From assembly GCF_963921235.1 (NCBI RefSeq), contig NC_086097.1:81842001-81906000 (forward strand): DNA of 64,000 nt, read 5' to 3'. The notes below the pieces were generated by a model. It had not been told where the DNA came from, searched no databases, and worked only from the letters and a program-made list of their open reading frames with translations. The translations under genes were made by a program, and so were the position numbers. The stretch's first letter is position 1. Each line of letters begins with the position of its first letter. This document shows, piece after piece, positions 1 to 42,327 of the stretch. This DNA is from Mobula hypostoma. Lineage: Eukaryota.

Positions 1-779
1 CTGCCACTTAGATGACGATATAACAGCGCTGGTAGAGTATAAATGTAGCATGTTGAATGCAAGTTTGATTGACCATCAATATTGTCTACAATTGACATTA
101 ATCAGTAGTCCTGGTTTCAGATTGAGAAAAATCAACCCATTTCTCCCAATTAATGATCATTTATGCAGCCATCCCTCCTCCATCTCTAAAGACGTAGAAT
201 ATAGACCTGAGTTGAGAACTAAGCGAAGTTGAAACATGTGATGTTCAGATCTGTAGCCCCAGTACCTGGGGCAGTGTAAGCATCCTTGATCTCCAAATTG
301 GTGGGTGGGTATTCATGCAGAGAGAAAAAAAATGATGCACACCATCTTGAGCGTGTTCATTGTCAAGAGGAAGAAAGTCTACAGAGAGGACAGATTACGT
401 TGTCAGTGTGCAGTGCCAGTGCTGCCATTTCTCAGCCCAATGTTCTACCTAATGATCTAGTTTATATCTGTTTGGCAGAATGTGCACATCAGCAGTGGAA
501 CGCAGTCCCCACCAATCAGCACAGAAGTAGGGAAAGTAATCACCATCTGCTAACAATATAGAGGATTATTTATTTCTTTTGAATGCTCATGCAATCACAC
601 CTCAGTGCTTTCTTCAGTTGCTTAGAAGGTTTTCAGGGTGTAGCGTGGCAGATGCTAAAGATCATTTTGTTTATTGAACTTCCCGCCGGAACAGTTGTGG
701 GCTTATTGGTCGTCACGCCACCGCCAGTAGAGTGGACAGACACCACAGGGAAGCAGACAAGCAGAAAATTAGGAAAATG

Positions 780-7849: not shown

Positions 7850-10310
7850 TTTGCCTCTCAAAGAACTTCTCCTTGGTAATAGAGACAACACTCACCTCTG
7901 TTCCCAACTCTCTGGATTTTCTGGCAAGTTGATGGTTTCTTCCATAGTACTGAAACAAAATACTTACTCAGTTTATCTACCACTTTGTTGTTCTCTGTTA
8001 TTGCTGCTTCAGCATCATTTTCCAATGTCCAATCTTGCCTCTCATCTTCCCTATCTTATTGCTTACTGCTAATCTTTGCAATACTGTATGCCCTCTCTTT
8101 TACTTTTATGATGTCTTGCACTTCCTTTACCAGCCACAATTGCTTCATCTTCTCTTTAGAATGCTTCTTTTTCTTTGTGATAAAATGATCTTGCACCTTC
8201 CAAATCCCAGTAACTCTTGCCGTTGCTGTTCTACTATCATCCCTGTTCGGCTGCTAATCAGCTTTGGCTACTTACTCTCAGTCCTCTGTGGTTACCTTTA
8301 CTGAACTGTAATACAGACACATGTGATTTGAGCTTCTCCCTCACAAACTGTCGGGTAAATTCTATAATATTATCATCACTGTCCCCTTTACCTTCAGCTC
8401 CTTAAATCTGGCATATCTCCACAGTGACTCAACCACAAGCTGCTCTAAAAGCCAACTACATGAATTCTCTCTCTTTGAATCCAGAGCCGGCCTGATTTTC
8501 CCAGACGACCTGCATATTGCAGTCCCCATAACCATTGTAATATTGTCTTTCTCACATGTCTTTTTTTATCTGCTGTTGAAGTATGTACCCCACATCCCAG
8601 CTACCATTTGGAGGCTTTTATCAAACTCCTATTCGGGTCTTTTTTTCAATCCTTGCAGCTACTTAACTCTACCCACAAAGATTCAGCATCCTCTGATCCG
8701 ATGGTACTTCTTGCTAAGGATTTGATTTCATTTTCTGCCACTGCTTCACTCTACTCCTTCTGCCGCCTCCCTGCCTTTTTGCTAGGATGTGTATTCTTGG
8801 ATGTTTTGGACCTGGCTGTGATCTATTTTCAGCCACAACAATGTCATACTTGCCAATTTCTAACTGCACTTTATGATTGTCTACCTTGTTGCAAACACTG
8901 CATGTATTTAAAAATAACACCTTCAGTCCTATATTCACCACTCCCCTTCTCAAATTGGTCCCCGTGTTGCCTGAAGTAAAAATCTATTCCCTTTCTAACC
9001 ATTCTGCCTTATTTTATTCTGCAGTCTTCAGTAAACTCTCCTCTCCTTTCCTTTTAGTTTCTCCACACTTTTCCAATCTGCTGAACCTCACTCACTACTC
9101 TCCTCCCCCACGACCAGTACTGTTTAGTTTCAAAGGTTTCAAAGGTACATTTAATGTCGGAGTAATGTATACAATATACATCCTGAAATGCTTTTTCTTA
9201 GCAACCATCCACAAAAACAGAGGCTGCCCCAAAGAATGAATGACAGTTAAATGTTAGAACACCACAGCCCCCCCAGCTCCCTCCTCCCACGCGTAAGTAG
9301 CAGTAAAGCAATGATTCCCCCCTCCCCCACCAGCAAAAAAATCATTGGCGCTCCCCCCCTCCACCCCACCGAGCCCTCAAGCGTGCAGCAAAGCACCAAT
9401 AAAGACGCGGACTTGAGTACTCCAAAGACTACTCGTTCACCCAGTAATTCAACATACTACAGGCTTTCTCTCTCCCTAATAAGCAGGAAGGAGATGTCTC
9501 CATTTCACATTGAGAGGGGAGACATAACAAACAACTTGCTGATTTACGATGTTAAAAGTCCGTTGTATGGCTTTTGCCGAGCTCTGTGCCCAAAGAACTC
9601 TGTGCACCAATCTTCCGTCTCTCATGAAGCACCAATTTTCTGCATAGGCACTGACCTCGAGTCCGCCCGCCTCCAGCCACAAAATCCCGAAACTCCAAAG
9701 GCGAGCTAGTCTTCTAGGCCGCATCCTTGGTATATCAAATAACGGCCAATCGTGAGACCCCAAGAGCAGGTCTCTTTCCTGAAAAGAACTGTAGTCGGCA
9801 TGTAACTCCAGCTCAGGGTCTTCAAAAGAACCCTGAAAGGGAAAAATAGAGATATTAAAGATGGAAATAGAGCCATTTCCGAAGATGCAAGCAAAGGAGT
9901 TGCTGTTAGTTTAAAGCCTTAGTTATGTGAATCATCAGGACCCTGGCCCCGTCATGGTTCAGGTGGAGTCTGTCACATGGGAATAGCTCCCTCCTTCACC
10001 AATACTGGTGTCAATATCCAACGAATTCAAACCCACTTCTCCTTCACCAATCTTTGCGCCATACATTTAACTCTCTAATCTTATTGACCCTATTGCTTAT
10101 TGCCTCATGGCTTAGGAAGCAATCTAGACATTATTACACATTTTGGTTCTGCCTTTTTAATTTAGTCTCTAGCTACCCAAATTCCCTCAGCATAATCTCG
10201 TTCCTGGCTCTACCTACATTCTTGGAGCACACATGGACCATGACAATTGGATCTTCCTCCTCATACTCCATATTTCTCTGCAGGTTAGATAAGGTGGACT
10301 GACCCAAGCA
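7850..10310 (-). mobile_element. Degraded CR1 LINE (esterase-ORF1 to APE region), split by the insertion at 9131-9905
   Basis: EEEDPIVMVHVCSKNVGR (esterase-like, 10173-10403) and KVLFLNTCSVCNKVD...YDIVVAE (APE start, 8714-8953). Confidence 0.75.
9131..9905 (-). mobile_element. ~775-bp non-coding retroelement with Rex1-like 3' tail
   Basis: TTAGTTT duplicated at 9124-9130 and 9906-9912. Minus-strand tail ATTAAATGTACCTTTGAAACCTTTG. The host CR1 reads through once it is removed (compare 44701 onward). Confidence 0.75.
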
Positions 10311-17282: not shown

Positions 17283-18709
17283 AACTTTGATCCTGAGTTC
17301 CTCAAGTAAATAACACTAGCTGCAGATGTGGTTACCAGGAACCTCAATGGGCTCCACTAGCTCCATATCATGCAGCCATAACTCATTGCCTGATCTTCAC
17401 ATCCAAACATTATTTAATTAGTTGAAACGTGGTGTCTTCTTATTTAATTACTACGCTGTTGGTATTAGTCTCAGTACAAGCCTACTAAACAAATGGTCTG
17501 TCTTGAGTAATTTAAGGAGGATAGGTTATGGGTCTTAACAGGTCCTTTCTGAAGCCTCCTCCCTCCAAAACCACTTGAATGAAAGCCACTCTGACAATGA
17601 CAGATCCACTATAGCTGTGCCACTTGAACTTCCTTACCTTTTATTGACAGCAGCTACTCAGATAGCCAATTAATTATTCAACTAGGTTCTCTGTTTTAAG
17701 TCCTTCTCGCTCAAGCTCCTGTAAAATGAAACTCACTTGCAACAAGACTTATTGTTTTAACTCCTTCCCGCGAGAAACCAATGACTTGGGAAGTGATGGG
17801 AGAAAACTAGTAAATTAAGAAGGAAAATGTAGCTTGTCATCATTGAAAAATGACACCTTTGAGTGCTAATTTACATGTGCCTATTTGCTTTACATAATTA
17901 CACAGCTGTGAGAATTCACAGATGTATAAACACAGAATATGCTGTGATCAGCAATATAATAGGAATTTATAATCAAGACTGACACAATGATTATAATCAG
18001 TTTCAACTATCATCCATGGCAGGTGGTTGCTACACGTTCCTTTGTCCTGTTCTTTGGTCTTTGGCAATTCATTTCTCACTCTGCTTGACACATTTTATGA
18101 GGGCCAGAAATCCTTTAAGCACTCTCTAATAAGTGAAGAGAATTGTCACGTCTTGTGTCTTATCAAAGTGGAATGACTGCTGTCTTGACAATCACTTGAT
18201 TGGTGATTGACTGTTCGAAGCTCATATGCTGTGCACCTCATACTTAAACATGATAGATCCATAAAGATCTGTAAAGATTGCAAGAGGATTTGGGTGCAAG
18301 TGTACTTCTAATTATTTACAGCTCTGATGCAATTACATCTAGAATACCTTGTGGAGTCCCGATGAAGGGTTTCAGTCTGAAACATTAACAGTTCATTCCC
18401 TTTCAGAGACTTGCTGAATTCCTCCAGCACTTTGTGTGTGTTACTCAAGAGTTCCAGCATCCGCAATAATCTTTTTGACTGTGTGGATGTTTTATCTCTC
18501 AACCTCATGGTTGACATTTATCAACCGTGGGAATGAGTTCAAGAACCTTGAGGTAATGTTACAGTTACATAAGACCTTAGTTAGTCCCCAATTGGAGTAC
18601 TGTGTTCAGTTCTGGTCACCTCACTACAGGAAGGATGTGGATACTATAGAGAGAGTACAGAGAGATTTACAAGGATGCTGCCTGGATTGGAGGGTGAATC
18701 TTATGAGAT

Positions 18710-19123
18710 GCCGGGGTCAAGGATGTCTCTGATCGATTGCATGACATTCTGAAGTGGGAGGGTGATCGGCCAGATGTCGTGGTCCACATTGGTACCAGTG
18801 ACATAGCAAGGAAGAGTGAAGAGGTCCTGGAGAGTGAGTATAGAGAGCTTGGTAGGAAGTTGAAAAGCAGGACCTTGAGGGTGGTAATCTCAGGATTGCT
18901 ACCTGTGCTAGGTGCCAGTGAGGGTAGGAATAGGATGCTCTGGAGGAGGAACAAGTGGCTGAGGAACTGGTGTAGGGGGCAGGGTTTCAGTTTTCAGGAT
19001 AATTGGGACCTCTTCTGGTGCAGGTGGGACCTGTACAAGAGAGATGGGTTACACTTGAACTAGAGGGGGACCAATATCCTTTCAGGGAGGTTTGTTAATG
19101 CTATTGGGGGGGCTTTAAACTAG
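18710..19123 (+). pseudogene. CR1 ORF1 SGNH esterase domain fragment
   Basis: VVVHIGTSD (GxND block) and RDGLH (DxxH block); premature TAG at 19061-19063. Confidence 0.85.
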
Positions 19124-19245
19124 ATTTGCAGGGGGATGGGAACCACAGTACCAGAGCTGACAGTGTGGCTGGGGTGAAAATAAATGATGTTAAAAGTTCA
19201 AGCAAATCCACTAATAGAAAGGTTGTGAGTGGTGGTAAAAATCTT

Positions 19246-22050
19246 CTGAGGTGTATATATTTCAATGCTAGGAGTATTGTGGGGAAGGTGGATGAGTTGA
19301 GGGCGTGGATTGCCACGTGGAATTATGACGTTGTAGCAATTAGTGAAACTTGGCTACAGGAGGGGCAGGACTGGCAGCTTAATATTCCAGGGTCCGATGT
19401 TTCAGATGTGATCGAGGCAGAGGAATGAAAGGTGGAGGAGTGGCATTGCTTGTTAGGGAAAATATTACAGCAGTGCTTAGGCAGGACAGATTAGAGGGCT
19501 TGTCTACTGAGTCCTTGTGGGTGGAGCTGAGAAACAGGAAAGGTATGGCCACATTAGTGGGATTGTATTACAGACCACCCAATAGTCAAAGAGAATTGGA
19601 AGTGCAAATCTGCAGAGAGATAGCAGGCAACTGCAGGAAACATAAAGTTGTGGTGGAAGGGGATTTTAATTTTCCATATATTGATTGGGTCTCCCATACT
19701 GTTAGGGGTCTAGATGGTTTAGAGTTTGTAAAATGTGTTCAGGAAAGTTTTCTAAATCAATATATAGAGGGACCGACTAGAGGGGATGCAATATTGGATC
19801 TCCTGTTAGGAATCGAGTTAGGACAAGTGACAGAAGTCTGTGTAGGGGAGCACTTTGGTTCCAGTGATCATAACACCATTAGTTTCAACTTGATCATGGA
19901 CAAGGATAGATCTGGATCTAGGGTTGAGGTTCTTAACTGGAAGAAGGCCAAATTTGAAGAAATGAGAAAGGATCTAAAAAGCGTGAATTGGGATAGGTTG
20001 TTCTCTGGCATGGATGTGATCGGTAGGTGGGAAGCCTTCAAAGCAGAAATTTTGAGAGTGCAGAATTTGTATGTTCCTGTCAGGATTAAAGGCAAGGTGA
20101 ATAGGAATAAGGAACCTTGGTTCTCAAGGGATATTGCAACTCTGATAAAGAAGAAGAGGGAGTTGTATGACGTGTATAGGAAGCAGGGAGTAAATAAGGT
20201 GCTTGAGGAGTATAAGAAGTGCAAGAAAATACTTAAGAAAGAAATCAGGAGGGCTAAAAGAAGACATGAGGTTGCCTTGGCAGTCAAAGTGAAGGATAAT
20301 CCGAAGAGCTTTTACAGGTATATTAAGAGCAAAAGGATTGTAAGGGATAAAATTGGTCCTCTTGAAGATCAGAGTGGTCGGCTATGTGCAGAACCAAAGG
20401 AAATAGGGGAGATCTTAAATAGGTTTTTTGCGTCTGCGTTTACTAAGGAAACTGGCATGAAGTCTATGGAATTAAGGGAAACAAGTAGTGAGATCATGGA
20501 AACTGTACAGATCGAAAAGGAGGAGGTCCTTGCTGTCTTGAGGAAAATTAAAGTGGATAAATCCCCGGGACCTGACAGGGTGTTCCCTTGGACCTTGAAG
20601 GAAACTAGTGTTGAAATTGCAGGGGCCCTGGCTGAAATATTTAAAATGTTGCTGTCTACAGGTGAGGTACCGGAGGATTGGAGAGTGGCTCATGTTGTTC
20701 CGTTGTTTAAAAAAGGATCGAAAAGTAATCCGGGAAATTATAGGCCAGTAAGTTTAATGTCGGTAGTAGGTAAGTTATTGGAGGGAGTACTAAGAGACAG
20801 AATCTACAAGCATTTGGATAGACAGGGACTTATTAGGGAGAGTCAACATGGCTTTGTGCGTGGTAGGTCATGTTTGACCAATCTATTGGAGTTTTTCGAG
20901 GAGGTTACCAGGAAAGTGGATGAAGGGAAGGCAGTGGATATTGTCTACATGGACTTCAGTAAGGCCTTTGACAAGGTCGCACATGGGAGGTTAGTTAGGA
21001 AAATTCAGTCGCTAGGTATACATGGAGAGGTGGTAAATTGGATTAGACATTGGCTCGATGGAAGAAGCCAGAGAGTGGTGGTAGAGAATTGCTTCTCTGA
21101 GTGGAGGCCTGTGACTAGTGGTGTGACACAGGGATCAGTGCTGGGTCCATTGTTATTTGTCATCTATATCAATGATCTGGATGATAATGTGGTAAATTGG
21201 ATCAGCAAGTTTGCTGATGATACAAAGATTGGAGGTGTAGTAGACAGTGAGGAAGGTTTTCAGAGCCTGCAGACGGACTTGGACCAGCTGGAAAAATGGG
21301 CTAAAAAATGGCTGATGGAGTTTAATACTGACAAGTGTGAGGTATTGCACGTTGGAAGGACAAACCAACGTAGAACATATAGGGTTAATGGTAAGGCACT
21401 GAGGAGTGCAGTGGAACAGAGGGATCTGGGAATACAGATACAAAATTCCCTAAAAATGGCGTCACAGGTAGATAGGGTCGTAAAGAGAGCTTTTGGTACA
21501 TTGGCCTTTATTAATCAAAGTATTGAGTATAAGAGCTGGAATGTTATGATGAGGTTGTATAAGGCATTGGTGAGGCCGAATCTGGAGTATTGTGTTCAGT
21601 TTTGGTCACCAAATTACAGGAAGGATATAAATAAGGTTGAAAGAGTGCAGAGAAGGTTTACAAGGATGTTGCCGGGACTTGAGAAACTCAGTTACAGAGA
21701 AAGGTTGAATAGGTTGGGACTTTATTCCCTGGAGCATAGAAGAATGAGGGGAGATTTGATAGAGGTATATAAAATTATGATGGGTATAGATAGAGTGAAT
21801 GCAAGCAGGCTTTTTCCACTGAGGCAAGGGGAGAAAAAAACCAGAGGACATGGGTTTAGGGTGAGGGGTTAAAAGTTTAAAGGGAACATTAGGGGGGGCT
21901 TCTTCACACAGAGAGTGGTGGGAGTATGGAATGAGCTGCCAGATGAGGTGGTAAATGCGGGTTCTTTTTTAACATTTAAGAATAAATTGGACAGATACAT
22001 GGATGGGAGGTGTATGGAGGGATGTGGTCCGTGTGCAGGTCAGTGGGACT
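19246..22050 (+). pseudogene. CR1 ORF2 (APE endonuclease plus reverse transcriptase); 815 aa open from 19425 to 21872
   Basis: YFNARSI, ISETW, GDFN and SSDH endonuclease motifs; QHGF, DFSKAFD, QGSVLGP and FADD RT motifs. One frameshift near 19390 and a premature stop at 21870-21872. Confidence 0.95.
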
Positions 22051-38030: not shown

Positions 38031-41000
38031 AAAACATTCAACATTTACCACCTTTTTCAAGTGAGTCCCTGCCCAGACAGTGAATCATATCATGGGAAAT
38101 TTTCACCCTATGTCATCAACTCACTCAGCAACCAGACAAGATCATCAATTCCGGCACTTGCTTCAACAGTGCGCTGGAAATATTAGTGAGTCACTCCCGA
38201 ATTTGCCAGTTTTCTTTCACAGAATTATATACAGGAAAATAGTGACCACCTGCCATTTTTATGAGGAGTTATTACATTTTATGGGAAAAATCATTTGAAA
38301 AATACTTAAAATGAAAGAACATACTGTGCCACTTGGAAGCAGAAAGTCCGAAGTATTTTCAGCTGTTTGCCTCCCTGTCTCATGTTAGTTATTGAGCGCA
38401 GGCCAAGTAAGTGATGAAGTTAACCATCTGCATTCCCCATTACAAAGCTCCAGTCTGATTAAGTGAATTATCTGCCTGGACGTTGAGTCCTAAGGACATC
38501 AACCCTGTGATTGTAATTTTTCAGACCCGGACACGACACTGCTGGTGGATTTGGTCTTGGTGTTCATTCTAATTAAGTTATAATTTTGCACCTGGTAAAC
38601 ATTTTTTTCTCTTTCATTGTTTTTTAGTATTTAGCTAGCACATTGAGAGAGTGAATCCTGGCTTCCTGCTGTGCTCTTTGTGTGTGAGATGTGGGAACGC
38701 TGGGAGACCTGATAACTGCGTCTGCATGAGGTGCATCCAGCTGCAGCTCCTCACAAACCATCTTGAGGGACTAGAGAGGCAGCTCGATGACCTTCAGCTC
38801 ATATGGGAGAATGAGGAGGTAATAGATAGGAGATACAGGGAGGCAGTCGCCCCAAGTTACAGAAGACAGGTAACTGGGTGACTGTCAGGAAAAAGGAGGG
38901 AAATGGACAGCCAGTGCTAAGTACCACTGTGGCCATTCCCCAATGATAAGAAAGCTCTTTCGATACTGTTGGGGGGAGGAGATACAACCTATTGAAGGGG
39001 GGGGGGGGATGCCACAGTGACCAGTCTCTCGCTCTCAGTCTGGGTATGTGGCTCGGAAGGGAAGGGGGAAGAGAGAAGTGCTGTATTGCTAGGGGATGCA
39101 GTGGATGTGAAAGAGACACCCAAGTGCCAGGGTCAGGGATGTCTTGGATCTGATCCACTGCATTCTAAAGGGGGAAGGTGAAAAGCCAGTAGTTGCAGTA
39201 CATATTGGTACCAATGATATAAGTAGGAAAAGGGATGAGGTCTTGAAGAGAGAATATAGGGGGTTAGGTAGAAAGCTGAACAGCAGGGTCGTAATCTCTG
39301 GATTGCTGCCTGCACCATACACCAGTGAGGGTAAGAATAGGATGATTTGGCAGCTGAATGTGTGGCTGAGAAATTGGTGCAGGGAGCAAGCAGATTTCTG
39401 GTTCATGAGAATCTGTGCAGGGGGAAGGTATGACCTGTTCCAAAATGATGGGTTATACCGTATCTGAACTCAAGGGGCACCAATATCCTTGCAGGCGGTT
39501 TTGTTAGAGTTGTTGAGGAGAGTTTGAGCTAATTTGGAAAAGAAGGTGGGAATCGGAGTGATACAGATGAGGATGGGGTAGTTGTATACAAGTAGACTCA
39601 GTGCGCAGTGAGAATGTGAGGAAGGACAGCTAGAGATTGGAAGGTATGATGTTTTGGGTTTCACTGAGTCATGGTTGAAAGAAGAAATCAAATCCTTAGA
39701 AAAAGATGACATAGGATCAGAAGATTTAGAATCCTTGTGGGTAGAGTTAAGAAACTGCAAGGATAAAAAAATCTTGATTGAAGTTATATACAAGCTTCCA
39801 AACAGTAGCCAGGACGTGGAGTACATATTACAAAGGAAGATAGAAAACACTTGTAAGAAGGCAAATATTACAATATTCATGAGGGATTTCAACATGCAGG
39901 TAGATTGGGAAAATCAGGTTGGTGCTGAATCTCGCAAGATGGAATTTATAGAATACTTATGAGATGGCTTTTTAGAGCAGCTTGTGGCTGAGCCCATTAG
40001 CGAAAAGGCAATCCTGCATTCAGTGCTGTGTAATGAACCAGATTTGATTAGGGAGCTTAAGGTAAAGGAACTCATCGGAGACTGTGATCAGAATATGACT
40101 GCTGTTTGCAGTTTGAGAGGGAGAAGATGAAGTCAGATGTATCAGTACTACAACGGAGCAAGGGGAATTACAAAGGCATGAGAGAGGAAAGTTGAATGGA
40201 ATGAGACACAAGCGGGAATGACAACAGAACAGCAATGGCTGATGTTTCTGGGAGGGGCGGGGTAAATTGGGAAGGTGCAGGATAGATACATCACAAAAAT
40301 GAATGAGTATTCTAAAAGGAGGACAAGGCAACCATGTCTGACAAGGGAAATCAAAGAAAGCATAGAAGGAAAAAAGAGGACATATAATACAGTAAAAATT
40401 ATTTGGAAGTTAGAGGATTAGGGAGCTTTTAAAAACCAACAGAAGGGAACTAAAAAAGCCATAAGGAGAGAAAGGATAAAATATGAAGGTAAGCTACCCA
40501 ATAATATAAAAGAGGATATATAAAGAATCAAAGGGAGGTGAGAATGGATATCGGACCACTGGAAAATGACACTAGAGAAGCATGGTGAACAAACGTTATA
40601 AGTATTTTGCATCAGTCTTCACTGTGGAGGATCCCAGCAGTATACCAGAAATTGGAGAGTGTTGGACGACAGAAGTGAGTGTAGTTGCTATTACAAAGGA
40701 GCAGATGCTTGGGAAGTTGAAAGGTCTGAAAAGATGTGCTGGCATTGGAGAGGATTCACAAGAGAAATTCTGGGAATAAAAGAAGAAGGTTCACAAGAAA
40801 AATTCGGGAATAAAAGTGTTATCATATGAGGAGCTTTTAATGGCTCTGGGCCTGTACTCACTGGAGTTTAAAAGAATGAGGAGGTGGTCATGTTAAAAAA
40901 TATCAAATATTGAAAGGCCTAGATAGAGTGCATGTGGAGTGGATGTATCCTATAGTGGAGGAGTCTAAGACCAGATGGCACAGCCTCAGAATAGGGGTCA

Positions 41001-41145
41001 TCCATTTGGAACAGAGATGAGGAGGAACTTCTTTAGCCAGAGGGTGGTGAATCAGTGCAATTAATTGCCACAGACGGCTGTGGAGGCTAAGATATCGGTT
41101 GTATAAAGCAGAGATTGATAGTTTAGTGATAAGTAAGAGCATGAA

Positions 41146-41339
41146 GGGGTGTATGGGGTGTCAGGGAGGGGTAGCACCTCTGGTGGAGGAACATGTCGCG
41201 TCCTTTTCAAGGCGGTTAGTCCACCTTTGGTCCCAACCTGGCACTCAGCTCTCACATGTGGCTCCCCGTAGCTGTTTGCATGTGACAGTGGCCACACCCC
41301 GGGCAACGGCTTCGACAAGCCGGCTAAACCAGGTGAGGG
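41146..41339 (+). ncRNA. HDV-like self-cleaving ribozyme candidate
   Basis: P1 GGGGTGT(41146-52)/ACACCCC(41294-300); P3 GGC(41260-62)/GCC(41291-93); L3 TCCCCGT; P1.1 GG(41301-02); GCAA; P4 CGGCTT-CGAC-AAGCCG; J4/2 GCTAA with C41324; P2 CTCTCACATGT/ACCAGGTGAGGG with one mismatch and one bulge. Confidence 0.75.
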
Positions 41340-41708
41340 TAGCCGATGGGTCTCAAACCCTCGGTGAGATAGGGAGTTGTCTATCCCAGCATGTGATGAC
41401 AGACTCCGGCGGATTGAGCGGACAAGACCGATGGAAGGTCCAATGGTCAAGAAGGCGGTCTCTGCAAGCGTCATGGAACGTGTAGAGCAGGACAAGACAC
41501 AGAAGATTTCCTGATCATCCACTGCGCCTGGTCCCATCTCCAGCCGTCTAGACTCTGTCTTGCCATTGGATCCAGATGGGAATTGGGAAGAGAGAGTGAG
41601 GCTGACACTGCGCAACTCTCCCTCACTTAAATCCAAATCACGCGCTAGTCTCGACACCATCATAATGGTGTCGAGGTCCTCATCGACGTCAACGATGGAC
41701 AAACAACC
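41146..41708 (+). mobile_element. 563-bp non-autonomous retroelement (SINE-like, RTE-5'UTR-like body) with a ribozyme head
   Basis: Perfect 12-bp TSD TAAGAGCATGAA (41134-41145, 41709-41720). CpG-rich, no credible ORF, 3' stem-loops and an AAACAACC tail. Confidence 0.85.
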
Positions 41709-42327
41709 TAAGAGCATGAAAGTTTACGGGGAAAATTGGTTTGAGACATAAATTGAATCAGCCATGATGGAATGGTGCAACAGACTTGACGGGTCAAATG
41801 GCCTAATTCTATTCCAATGGTACTGTGCTAGTATGGAAATAACAACATAAATGTCTGTATGTAGCTAGGGCGCCTAAGACTTTTGCGCAGTACTGTAGTA
41901 ATTTTCTGTATTGCACTGTACTGTTGCCACAAAAAAAATTCATGACATATGCGAGTGATGATAAACCTGATTCTGATACGGGTCTCTATTGTGGACTGAG
42001 AGTGGAAAAGGAGCAGGGAGAGGGAAATCATGATTGGGAAAAGGGGAAGGAAGAGGAAAAGGAGCAGGAAGCACCAAAGATATTCTGTAATGATCAATAA
42101 ACCAATTGTTTGGAATCAAATGACCTTTCCTGGTGGACTCAGGGCTGGGTATCTTGCCCTACACCATCCCCAGTCCCTGGCATTCCTTCTTTGCACCTAC
42201 CCCACACCTCTCCTGCAGTGCTCTACCCTTGGCACTCTCAACATCCTTTGCTCATACCAGCTTTACAAACTCACTCACCACCCCACGTAGAGAAATACAG
42301 TGCTGTGCAAAAGTCTAGGGCACCCTA

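Follow-up and report, generated by a model that had tools for sequence, protein, structure and literature searches.

What sets the 5′ end of the retroposon at 41146-41708 of the window (the whole 64,000-nucleotide stretch of Mobula hypostoma DNA that we analysed), and could it be an HDV-like ribozyme, one that carries an additional hairpin in its L3 loop? The limits of the element follow from a 12-bp target-site duplication (TSD), TAAGAGCATGAA, and between the two repeats lies a single forward-strand copy of a 562-bp non-coding retroposon, which we named family A. Its host site is an older interspersed repeat, which the insertion interrupts. Family A occurs at high depth in contigs of sequencing runs X1, X2, X12 and X13, in which loose contig ends were found at 41146 and 41705/41707; these do not mark the ends of molecules and say nothing about cleavage. 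The older repeat (40800-41133 and 41721-41830) is itself at very high depth in the same four runs. Elsewhere in the window the GC skew is strong, at -0.28 in 8001-10000 and +0.30 and +0.43 across 18001-22000.

We searched the 3.48-Gb genome (200 contigs) for the element and retrieved 5,155 first-look candidates. All 40 of the matches that were scored proved to be 95-100% identical to it and essentially full length, and the mean divergence of 45 copies from the family A majority was 3.0%. At the 30 best loci, the copies are flanked by TSDs of 8-15 bp and their 3′ ends read ...CATCG-N7-CGATGGACGAACAAC with an (AAC)n or (CAAC)n tail after it; an exact GGGG at the predicted base 1 (G1), adjoining the TSD, opens 21 of the 30. 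A pattern for the ribozyme core (TCCCCGT, 10-40 N, GCC, 7 N, GGGCAAC), in which the P1 strand was left free, gave 1,555 matches in the genome compared with two for a reversed control. From the 100 matches listed of these 1,555, ordered by position and not ranked by similarity, we drew 29 distinct copies, 18 of which start exactly at G1. Seven others start at most 3 nt from G1 or are altered there, and the remaining four are 5′-truncated, at bases 10, 14, 34 and 111. The TSDs of 8-15 bp, the (AAC)n or (CAAC)n tails and the varying 5′ truncation are traits of non-LTR retroposons. Two copies (L045/L046) were found head to tail, with their cores 576 bp apart and a spacer of a few tens of bases that ends ...GTATGGGTGT, like the element's own 5′ end. 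A flank identical to this spacer precedes a further copy (L044) about 1 Mb away, and the arrangement may be a duplicated composite or an extension of the 5′ end.

The first 194 nt of the element fit a complete HDV-like nested double pseudoknot, with the helices in the canonical order P1-P2-P3-P1.1-P4 and lengths of 7, 10 (in the family majority), 3, 2 and 6 bp (Table 1). The first-pass annotation of this DNA had proposed such a layout, with the 5′ strand of P1 directly after the TSD, and we found every pairing that it listed in the place given for it, P1 starting at base 1 of the element. The GGGCAAC stretch of the core pattern spans 41301-41307.

Table 1. Features of the family A copy in the window, and identity between the majority sequences of families A and B along the element (bases are counted from G41146)
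Feature	Position	Strand	Description or basis
TSD, 5′ copy	41134-41145		TAAGAGCATGAA, same 12 bases at 41709-41720
Retroposon, family A copy	41146-41708	+	near full-length matches in genome; most copies TSD-flanked
P1 5′ strand GGGGTGT	41146-41152	+	element's first bases in 21/30 and 18/29 copies; predicted cleavage site 5′ of G41146
J1/2, 96 nt	41153-41248	+	long hairpin domain; closing stem 41156-41165 / 41237-41246 (MFE folds)
TTTT run inside J1/2	41204-41207 (bases 59-62)	+	invariant in 30 family A copies
P2 5′ strand	41249-41258	+	P2 97.2% of cells paired (67 copies)
P3 5′ strand GGC	41260-41262	+	P3 3/3 Watson-Crick; 98.0% paired (67 copies)
L3 core TCCCCGT	41263-41269	+	U41263/G41268, conserved U/G pair; CC 41264-41265, P1.1 strand
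Inserted hairpin, 21 nt	41270-41290	+	5-bp stem 41271-41275 / 41285-41289; between L3 core and P3 3′ strand
P3 3′ strand GCC	41291-41293	+	pairs with 41260-41262
P1 3′ strand ACACCCC	41294-41300	+	7/7 Watson-Crick with 41146-41152
P1.1 GG	41301-41302	+	can pair with CC 41264-41265
J1.1/4 GCAA (family B: TACA)	within 41301-41306	+	A/B comparison
P4 hairpin, 6 bp, loop CGAC	41307-41312 / 41317-41322	+	Watson-Crick 6/6
J4/2 GCTAAAC	41323-41329	+	C41324, candidate catalytic C; AA 41326-41327
P2 3′ strand CAGGTGAGGG	41330-41339	+	pairs with 41249-41258
Perfect 11-bp hairpin, family A-specific	41650-41675	+	sequence and family comparison
3′ stem-loop CATCG-N7-CGATG, then GAC(R)A(M)CA(M)C and short repeat tail	41681-41708	+	common to families A and B
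TSD, 3′ copy	41709-41720		perfect 12-bp direct repeat of 41134-41145
A/B identity	bases 1-40		40/41
A/B identity, J1/2 apex	bases 41-80		24/40
A/B identity	bases 81-160		73/80
A/B identity, P4	bases 161-180		15/20
A/B identity	bases 181-200		20/20
A/B identity	downstream of 200		~50-85%; 95% in bin 361-380; lower toward 3′ end

The U and G of the L3 core correspond to the residues whose role in HDV-like ribozymes, a trans G·U pair, is described in PMC3386971 and PMC3774820. In old copies the L3 T was kept in 27 of 29 and the G in 28 of 29, the J4/2 C in 26 of 29 and both of the following As in all 29; identified from position alone, C41324-T-A-A fits the C-N-R-A of HDV-like ribozymes. The mismatch previously noted in P2 is present in the window copy but does not extend to the family, since A41256 is a private mutation and the majority has C at this position, giving a 10-bp P2 with one G·U. 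As for J1/2, which the first-pass annotation had called unusual at about 95 nt, the length stands (96 nt) but the oddity does not, as the J1/2 loops of R2 ribozymes are reported to measure 216-498 nt (PMC3774820). The closing stem of J1/2, which lies 3 nt past P1 and 2 nt short of P2, is 94.9% paired in 67 copies. For the window copy, pseudoknot-free minimum free energy (MFE) folding returned P1, P4 and the J1/2 stem; for the family majorities P2 took the place of P1, and in the fold of the majority of the sister family B, described below, P3 and the inserted hairpin appeared as well. No HDV-type Rfam model matched at the gathering score, nor at E<=10 over 41050-41800, in agreement with the earlier suggestion that standard searches would miss this variant.

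Two features of P1 are less typical. The cleavage-site pair of HDV and CPEB3 is a G·U wobble; here it is G-C in 49 of 67 copies, G·U in 6 and unpaired in 12. A second GGGGTGT, which doubles as the 5′ side of the stem closing J1/2, occurs at 41155-41161 (bases 10-16), so that an alternative, competing P1 register is possible. One copy (L054) begins at this second G run (G10), the great majority of copies beginning at G1. The duplication of the P1 5′ strand at a distance of 9 nt (GGGGTGTAT GGGGTGTCA) was observed in families A and B alike, and it recalls the short duplications proposed to shift cleavage sites in R2 (PMC3774820).

Another departure from the HDV layout is in L3, where 21 nt had been noted between the loop core and the 3′ strand of P3. 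The insert was indeed there, and its length was 21 nt in each of the 100 matches listed of the 1,555. Together with the 7-nt core it brings L3 to 28 nt. L3 of HDV-like ribozymes measures 7-8 nt, and we know of none with an L3 of 28 nt; full-text literature searches turned up neither an HDV-like ribozyme with an insertion in L3 nor the family A element. The stem of the insert is 96.4% paired in 67 copies. It is also present in the older family B, and the two majorities are identical over all 21 bases, compared with about three differences expected at the local rate, which hints at constraint at the level of the sequence itself. We considered the inserted stem as a substitute for P3 and dismissed it, because its loop offers no CC for P1.1 and its 3′ strand does not adjoin P1′. 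A separate insert-less lineage was likewise dismissed. Only five genome matches had the insert replaced by 8 nt or fewer; among them were an unrelated stretch of DNA and a family B copy from which the hairpin has been deleted, the remaining three being known from the pattern match alone.

The hairpin starts one nucleotide past the conserved guanine of L3. C29, the residue next after this guanine in the antigenomic HDV ribozyme, is described as staying accessible while the RNA folds, as bulged out in the model and as the position of loop III that was conserved least under selection (PMC3386971), and on that account the insertion falls at the most permissive point of L3. By analogy with C29, the hairpin probably projects into the solvent and leaves the core undisturbed.

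A relative with 75% identity beside one family A copy led to two older families, B and C. Family B is about 545 bp long, starts with GGGGTGTATGGGGTGT, is flanked by TSDs and ends ...CATCG-N7-CGATGGACAACCACC, the tail stem-loop CATCG-N7-CGATG being common to both families. Like those of family A, its copies begin at the first base of P1. They are more diverged, at a mean of 15.2% from the family B majority (12 copies), and the insert-bearing form appears, from these values, to have passed through two waves of amplification, B (15.2%) and A (3.0%).

The majorities of A and B are identical at 387 of 574 positions and thus about 33% apart. This identity is unevenly distributed, with 133 of 141 positions identical in the ribozyme parts and 254 of 433 in the remainder of the element. 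The first 200 nt contain 28 differences and one indel, and none of the 28 is in P1, P2, P3, P1.1, the insert, the U or G of L3, or the C or AA of J4/2. Positions 4-5 of L3 change from CC in A to AA in B, and J1.1/4 from GCA to TAC. P4 has five base changes, all of which keep pairing (G-C to C-G, G-C to A-U and U-A to U·G), two of the pairs being compensatory. Among individual sequences, changes on both sides of a pair were found at two P4 pairs (in 11 and 6 sequences) and as singletons in the insert stem and P1. The share of paired cells is 94.7% across 67 distinct copies and falls to 34-49% when the 3′ partners are slid, and this, with the G1 starts counted above, bears out the expectation that 5′ ends and pairings would be conserved among copies.

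The covariation proposed as a check on P1, P2, P4 and the insert helix gave a divided answer: P4 has its two compensatory pairs, but P1 and P2 do not vary between A and B. As P3 is likewise invariant, covariation does not test the catalytic core, for which the evidence is conservation; when sequences are this close, conservation by itself is compatible with any function. Differences distributed in this way are what one would expect if an HDV-like core is under constraint while the J1/2 apex and P4 are free to change.

Family C was first seen at L046:2441-2760 and has 4,256 first-look candidates, which may overlap families A and B (loci L061-L089, for example L062, L065 and L068). It is about 1.1 kb long and consists of an unrelated 5′ module (TACAGTGGATTCTGGTTAATTGGG...) joined to A/B sequence at base 78, running on past the family B tail into a further 3′ module and lacking the 5′ strand of P1. 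We dismissed it as a functional test, since from its structure it is best read as one 5′-truncated family B copy that was nested in another repeat and later amplified, and such a copy says little about function. Separately, L084:1931-2200 holds five tandem 57-bp units from the 3′ end of family B, a minisatellite from the tail region.

We also asked how often such a layout arises by chance. Our relaxed descriptor consisted of a 7-bp P1, a J1/2 of up to 150 nt, a 3-bp P3, an L3 starting U-Y-C-N-N-G with up to 40 extra nt, P1.1, a P4 of at least 4 bp, C-N-R-A and a P2 in which 7 or more of the 10 positions pair. Its only matches in the 64-kb window were at 41146 and 41155. When the window was dinucleotide-shuffled and both strands were searched, one set of 20 shuffles yielded 33 starts and another of 45 yielded 62 (~1.4-1.7 per shuffle), so that a relaxed match by itself is not significant. 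An all-Watson-Crick P1 was present in only 3 of the 62 shuffle matches. The window copy has a layout score of 27 and the family copies at 46 loci score 24-28, compared with 18-23 for four non-family matches (three cores) in 288 kb of real flanking DNA searched on both strands. No shuffle or natural background match attains a family A score, the shuffles having been scored with P3 and P1.1 as 0/1 flags and the window and loci with the corrected score. The quality of the match and its start at the exact first base of the retroposon set the fold apart from chance.

What kind of element does this fold head? The first-pass annotation had suggested a ribozyme-headed SINE family, and a large family whose copies start at the equivalent of G41146 does exist, but it is not one of classical SINEs. 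ARAGORN detected no tRNA genes in five loci, and ARAGORN and Rfam gave no tRNA, 5S or 7SL-like head, so that the small-RNA head with an internal RNA polymerase III promoter by which classical SINEs are defined is missing from family A. A TTTT run would terminate RNA polymerase III, and the one within J1/2 argues against transcription of family A by this enzyme. The element has no protein-family (Pfam) match either, and we therefore class it as a head-less non-coding non-LTR retroposon. An open frame of 218 aa on the reverse strand (41061-41717) spans the whole element; of 45 copies 27 keep it open, as does the family A majority over its full 186 codons. As a gene it was dismissed, given the lack of a Pfam match and its closure in family B, where the longest frame is 112 aa. 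From base composition such a frame is roughly a 1-in-100 event, and it is probably due to chance. The 3′ stem-loop with its tail is presumed to be the recognition site of a partner reverse transcriptase. A search for the partner LINE with a regular expression for the tail over ~350 kb gave only family copies and unrelated look-alikes, and a genome-wide tail pattern that excluded families A and B gave 17 matches, mostly resembling tail variants of family B, with no partner among them.

Taking these results together, we consider it likely that family A is a young, non-autonomous LINE-like element headed by a working HDV-like ribozyme with an L3 insert, which processes its 5′ end. Copies would be transcribed passively within longer RNA polymerase II transcripts. 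The nested double pseudoknot would then form from P1, the J1/2 domain, P2, P3, the L3 sequence UCCCCGU, P1.1, P4 and the J4/2 sequence CUAA and, judging by the fold, C41324 would catalyse cleavage just 5′ of G41146, shedding all upstream host sequence. As the tail, the TSDs and the AT-rich flanks suggest, the reverse transcriptase of a partner LINE would recognise the 3′ stem-loop and the (AAC)n-type tail, and target-primed reverse transcription would copy the RNA to its exact 5′ end. The final step is observed: new copies start at G1 beside a TSD of 8-15 bp. Consistent with this reading, we found no rival route to the 5′ end, there being no tRNA, 5S or 7SL-like head and a T4 run at bases 59-62. 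Several observations weigh against it, namely the mostly G-C cleavage-site pair, the lack of an HDV-type Rfam match, the duplicated GGGGTGT, the 28-nt L3, the absence of A/B variation in P1-P3 and the ~1.4-1.7 chance starts per shuffle of the relaxed descriptor.

The main rival holds that the fold is the vestige of an ancestral LINE ribozyme, that the L3 insertion killed catalysis and that an internal promoter sets the end at G1. An L3 insert of this size is without precedent in the literature searched, the cleavage-site pair is G-C and not G·U, and P1-P3 show no covariation; in addition, the first 77 nt of L1Tc are reported to be promoter and ribozyme at once (PMC3383444), which indicates that promoter function can be what preserves a 5′ domain. 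However, the insert predates both waves of amplification, and the ribozyme elements stayed intact in the master lineage while neighbouring sequence diverged by at least 40%. The P4 substitutions are, moreover, all pair-preserving, which a DNA promoter would not require, and family A has no Pol III head and contains the T4 run. We regard a vestigial fold as rather unlikely.

Rather unlikely too is the proposal that the L3 hairpin contributes to function and marks a separate subclass of HDV-like ribozymes, effectively a 'P3.1' helix, which might serve as a docking site for the protein of the partner LINE or as a switch that gates cleavage. If so, the thousands of dispersed copies would expose the animal's transcriptome to widespread, and possibly regulated, self-cleavage within host transcripts.

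We think it improbable that the region serves as a structured RNA in some other capacity, for example to bind the protein of the partner LINE, to promote nuclear export or to fold in connection with translation, and that its likeness to HDV is partial convergence. The hairpin and bases 1-40 are conserved in sequence, beyond what structure would call for, and family C has bases 78 onward without the P1 5′ strand. Such convergence would nevertheless have to produce five helices, the L3 U and G, the CC/GG of P1.1 and C-N-A-A in the right order and from base 1, and family C, as a probable amplified truncated B copy, has little bearing on function. Pure chance, in the form of a relaxed pseudoknot layout in a GC-rich repeat, for which the shuffle counts above speak, is very improbable given that no background match is at the family score (with shuffles on 0/1-flag scoring), that the layout starts at base 1 of the element and that it was kept in two families ~33% apart with compensated changes in P4.

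Should the RNA of family A cleave, an additional helix at the 3′ end of L3 would prove compatible with the HDV fold. An L3 of 7-8 nt is built into descriptor searches and Rfam models alike, which would pass over such forms, so HDV-like ribozymes may be undercounted in large animal genomes. A working ribozyme would also provide, in family A, a vertebrate case of a head-less retroposon that reaches very high copy number and is processed by a ribozyme, would explain the exact 5′ end of an element without a promoter of its own, and would place thousands of potential self-cleavage sites within host transcripts.

The release of retrotransposon 5′ ends from co-transcripts by HDV-like ribozymes has been established for R2 (PMC3774820), and the same role for L1Tc and its non-autonomous partner NARTc (PMC3185411, PMC3383444). 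Kojima reports 5′ ribozymes in six LINE clades and notes the 'bipartite non-autonomous LINEs' to which RTE, Ingi and R2 give rise and which retain the LINE 5′ end (PMC5786205), and R2 SIDEs are ribozyme-bearing non-autonomous derivatives of R2 (PMC3414825). A non-autonomous element with a ribozyme at its head, which the first-pass annotation had put forward as a possible SINE family, was therefore preceded by NARTc, the SIDEs and the bipartite LINEs (PMC3383444, PMC3414825, PMC5786205).

With the ribozymes of R2, as described in PMC3774820, family A shares the nested double pseudoknot, a cleavage site (in family A a predicted one) at or beside base 1 of the element and a long J1/2, and the role proposed here, that of freeing the element RNA from a co-transcript, is the same. 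Its L3 core differs at one of seven bases from the UCCUCGU of the R2 motif CCUCCUCGUGG (PMC5035012). It differs in the 21-nt L3 hairpin, the G-C first pair of P1 and the lack of an Rfam match, and the element itself is dispersed, non-coding and present in thousands of copies. Family A also resembles the R2 SIDEs, NARTc and the bipartite LINEs, which are described as short, non-coding and head-less, with a LINE-type 5′ ribozyme and 3′ end (PMC3414825, PMC3383444, PMC5786205). Unlike these, family A has no autonomous partner among the sequences searched, so we infer its origin by internal deletion, and its host is a 3.5-Gb animal genome. The copy number of R2 SIDEs is far below that of family A.

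Structured J1/2 domains are reported to activate large HDV-like ribozymes (PMC4908430). The J1/2 helix of family A closes a few nucleotides from P1 and P2 and could be a 'pinch' of this type, whereas the ribozymes described in that study have a normal L3 (PMC4908430). The CPEB3 ribozyme shares with family A the HDV-like fold in a vertebrate genome and the 7-nt U..G core of L3. It is single-copy, intronic and compact; family A, in contrast, is retroposon-borne and has large insertions in J1/2 and L3. The kind of element is thus already known, and its novelty here lies in the helix in L3, in a first pair that is G-C, in a very high copy number and in the large animal genome that hosts it.
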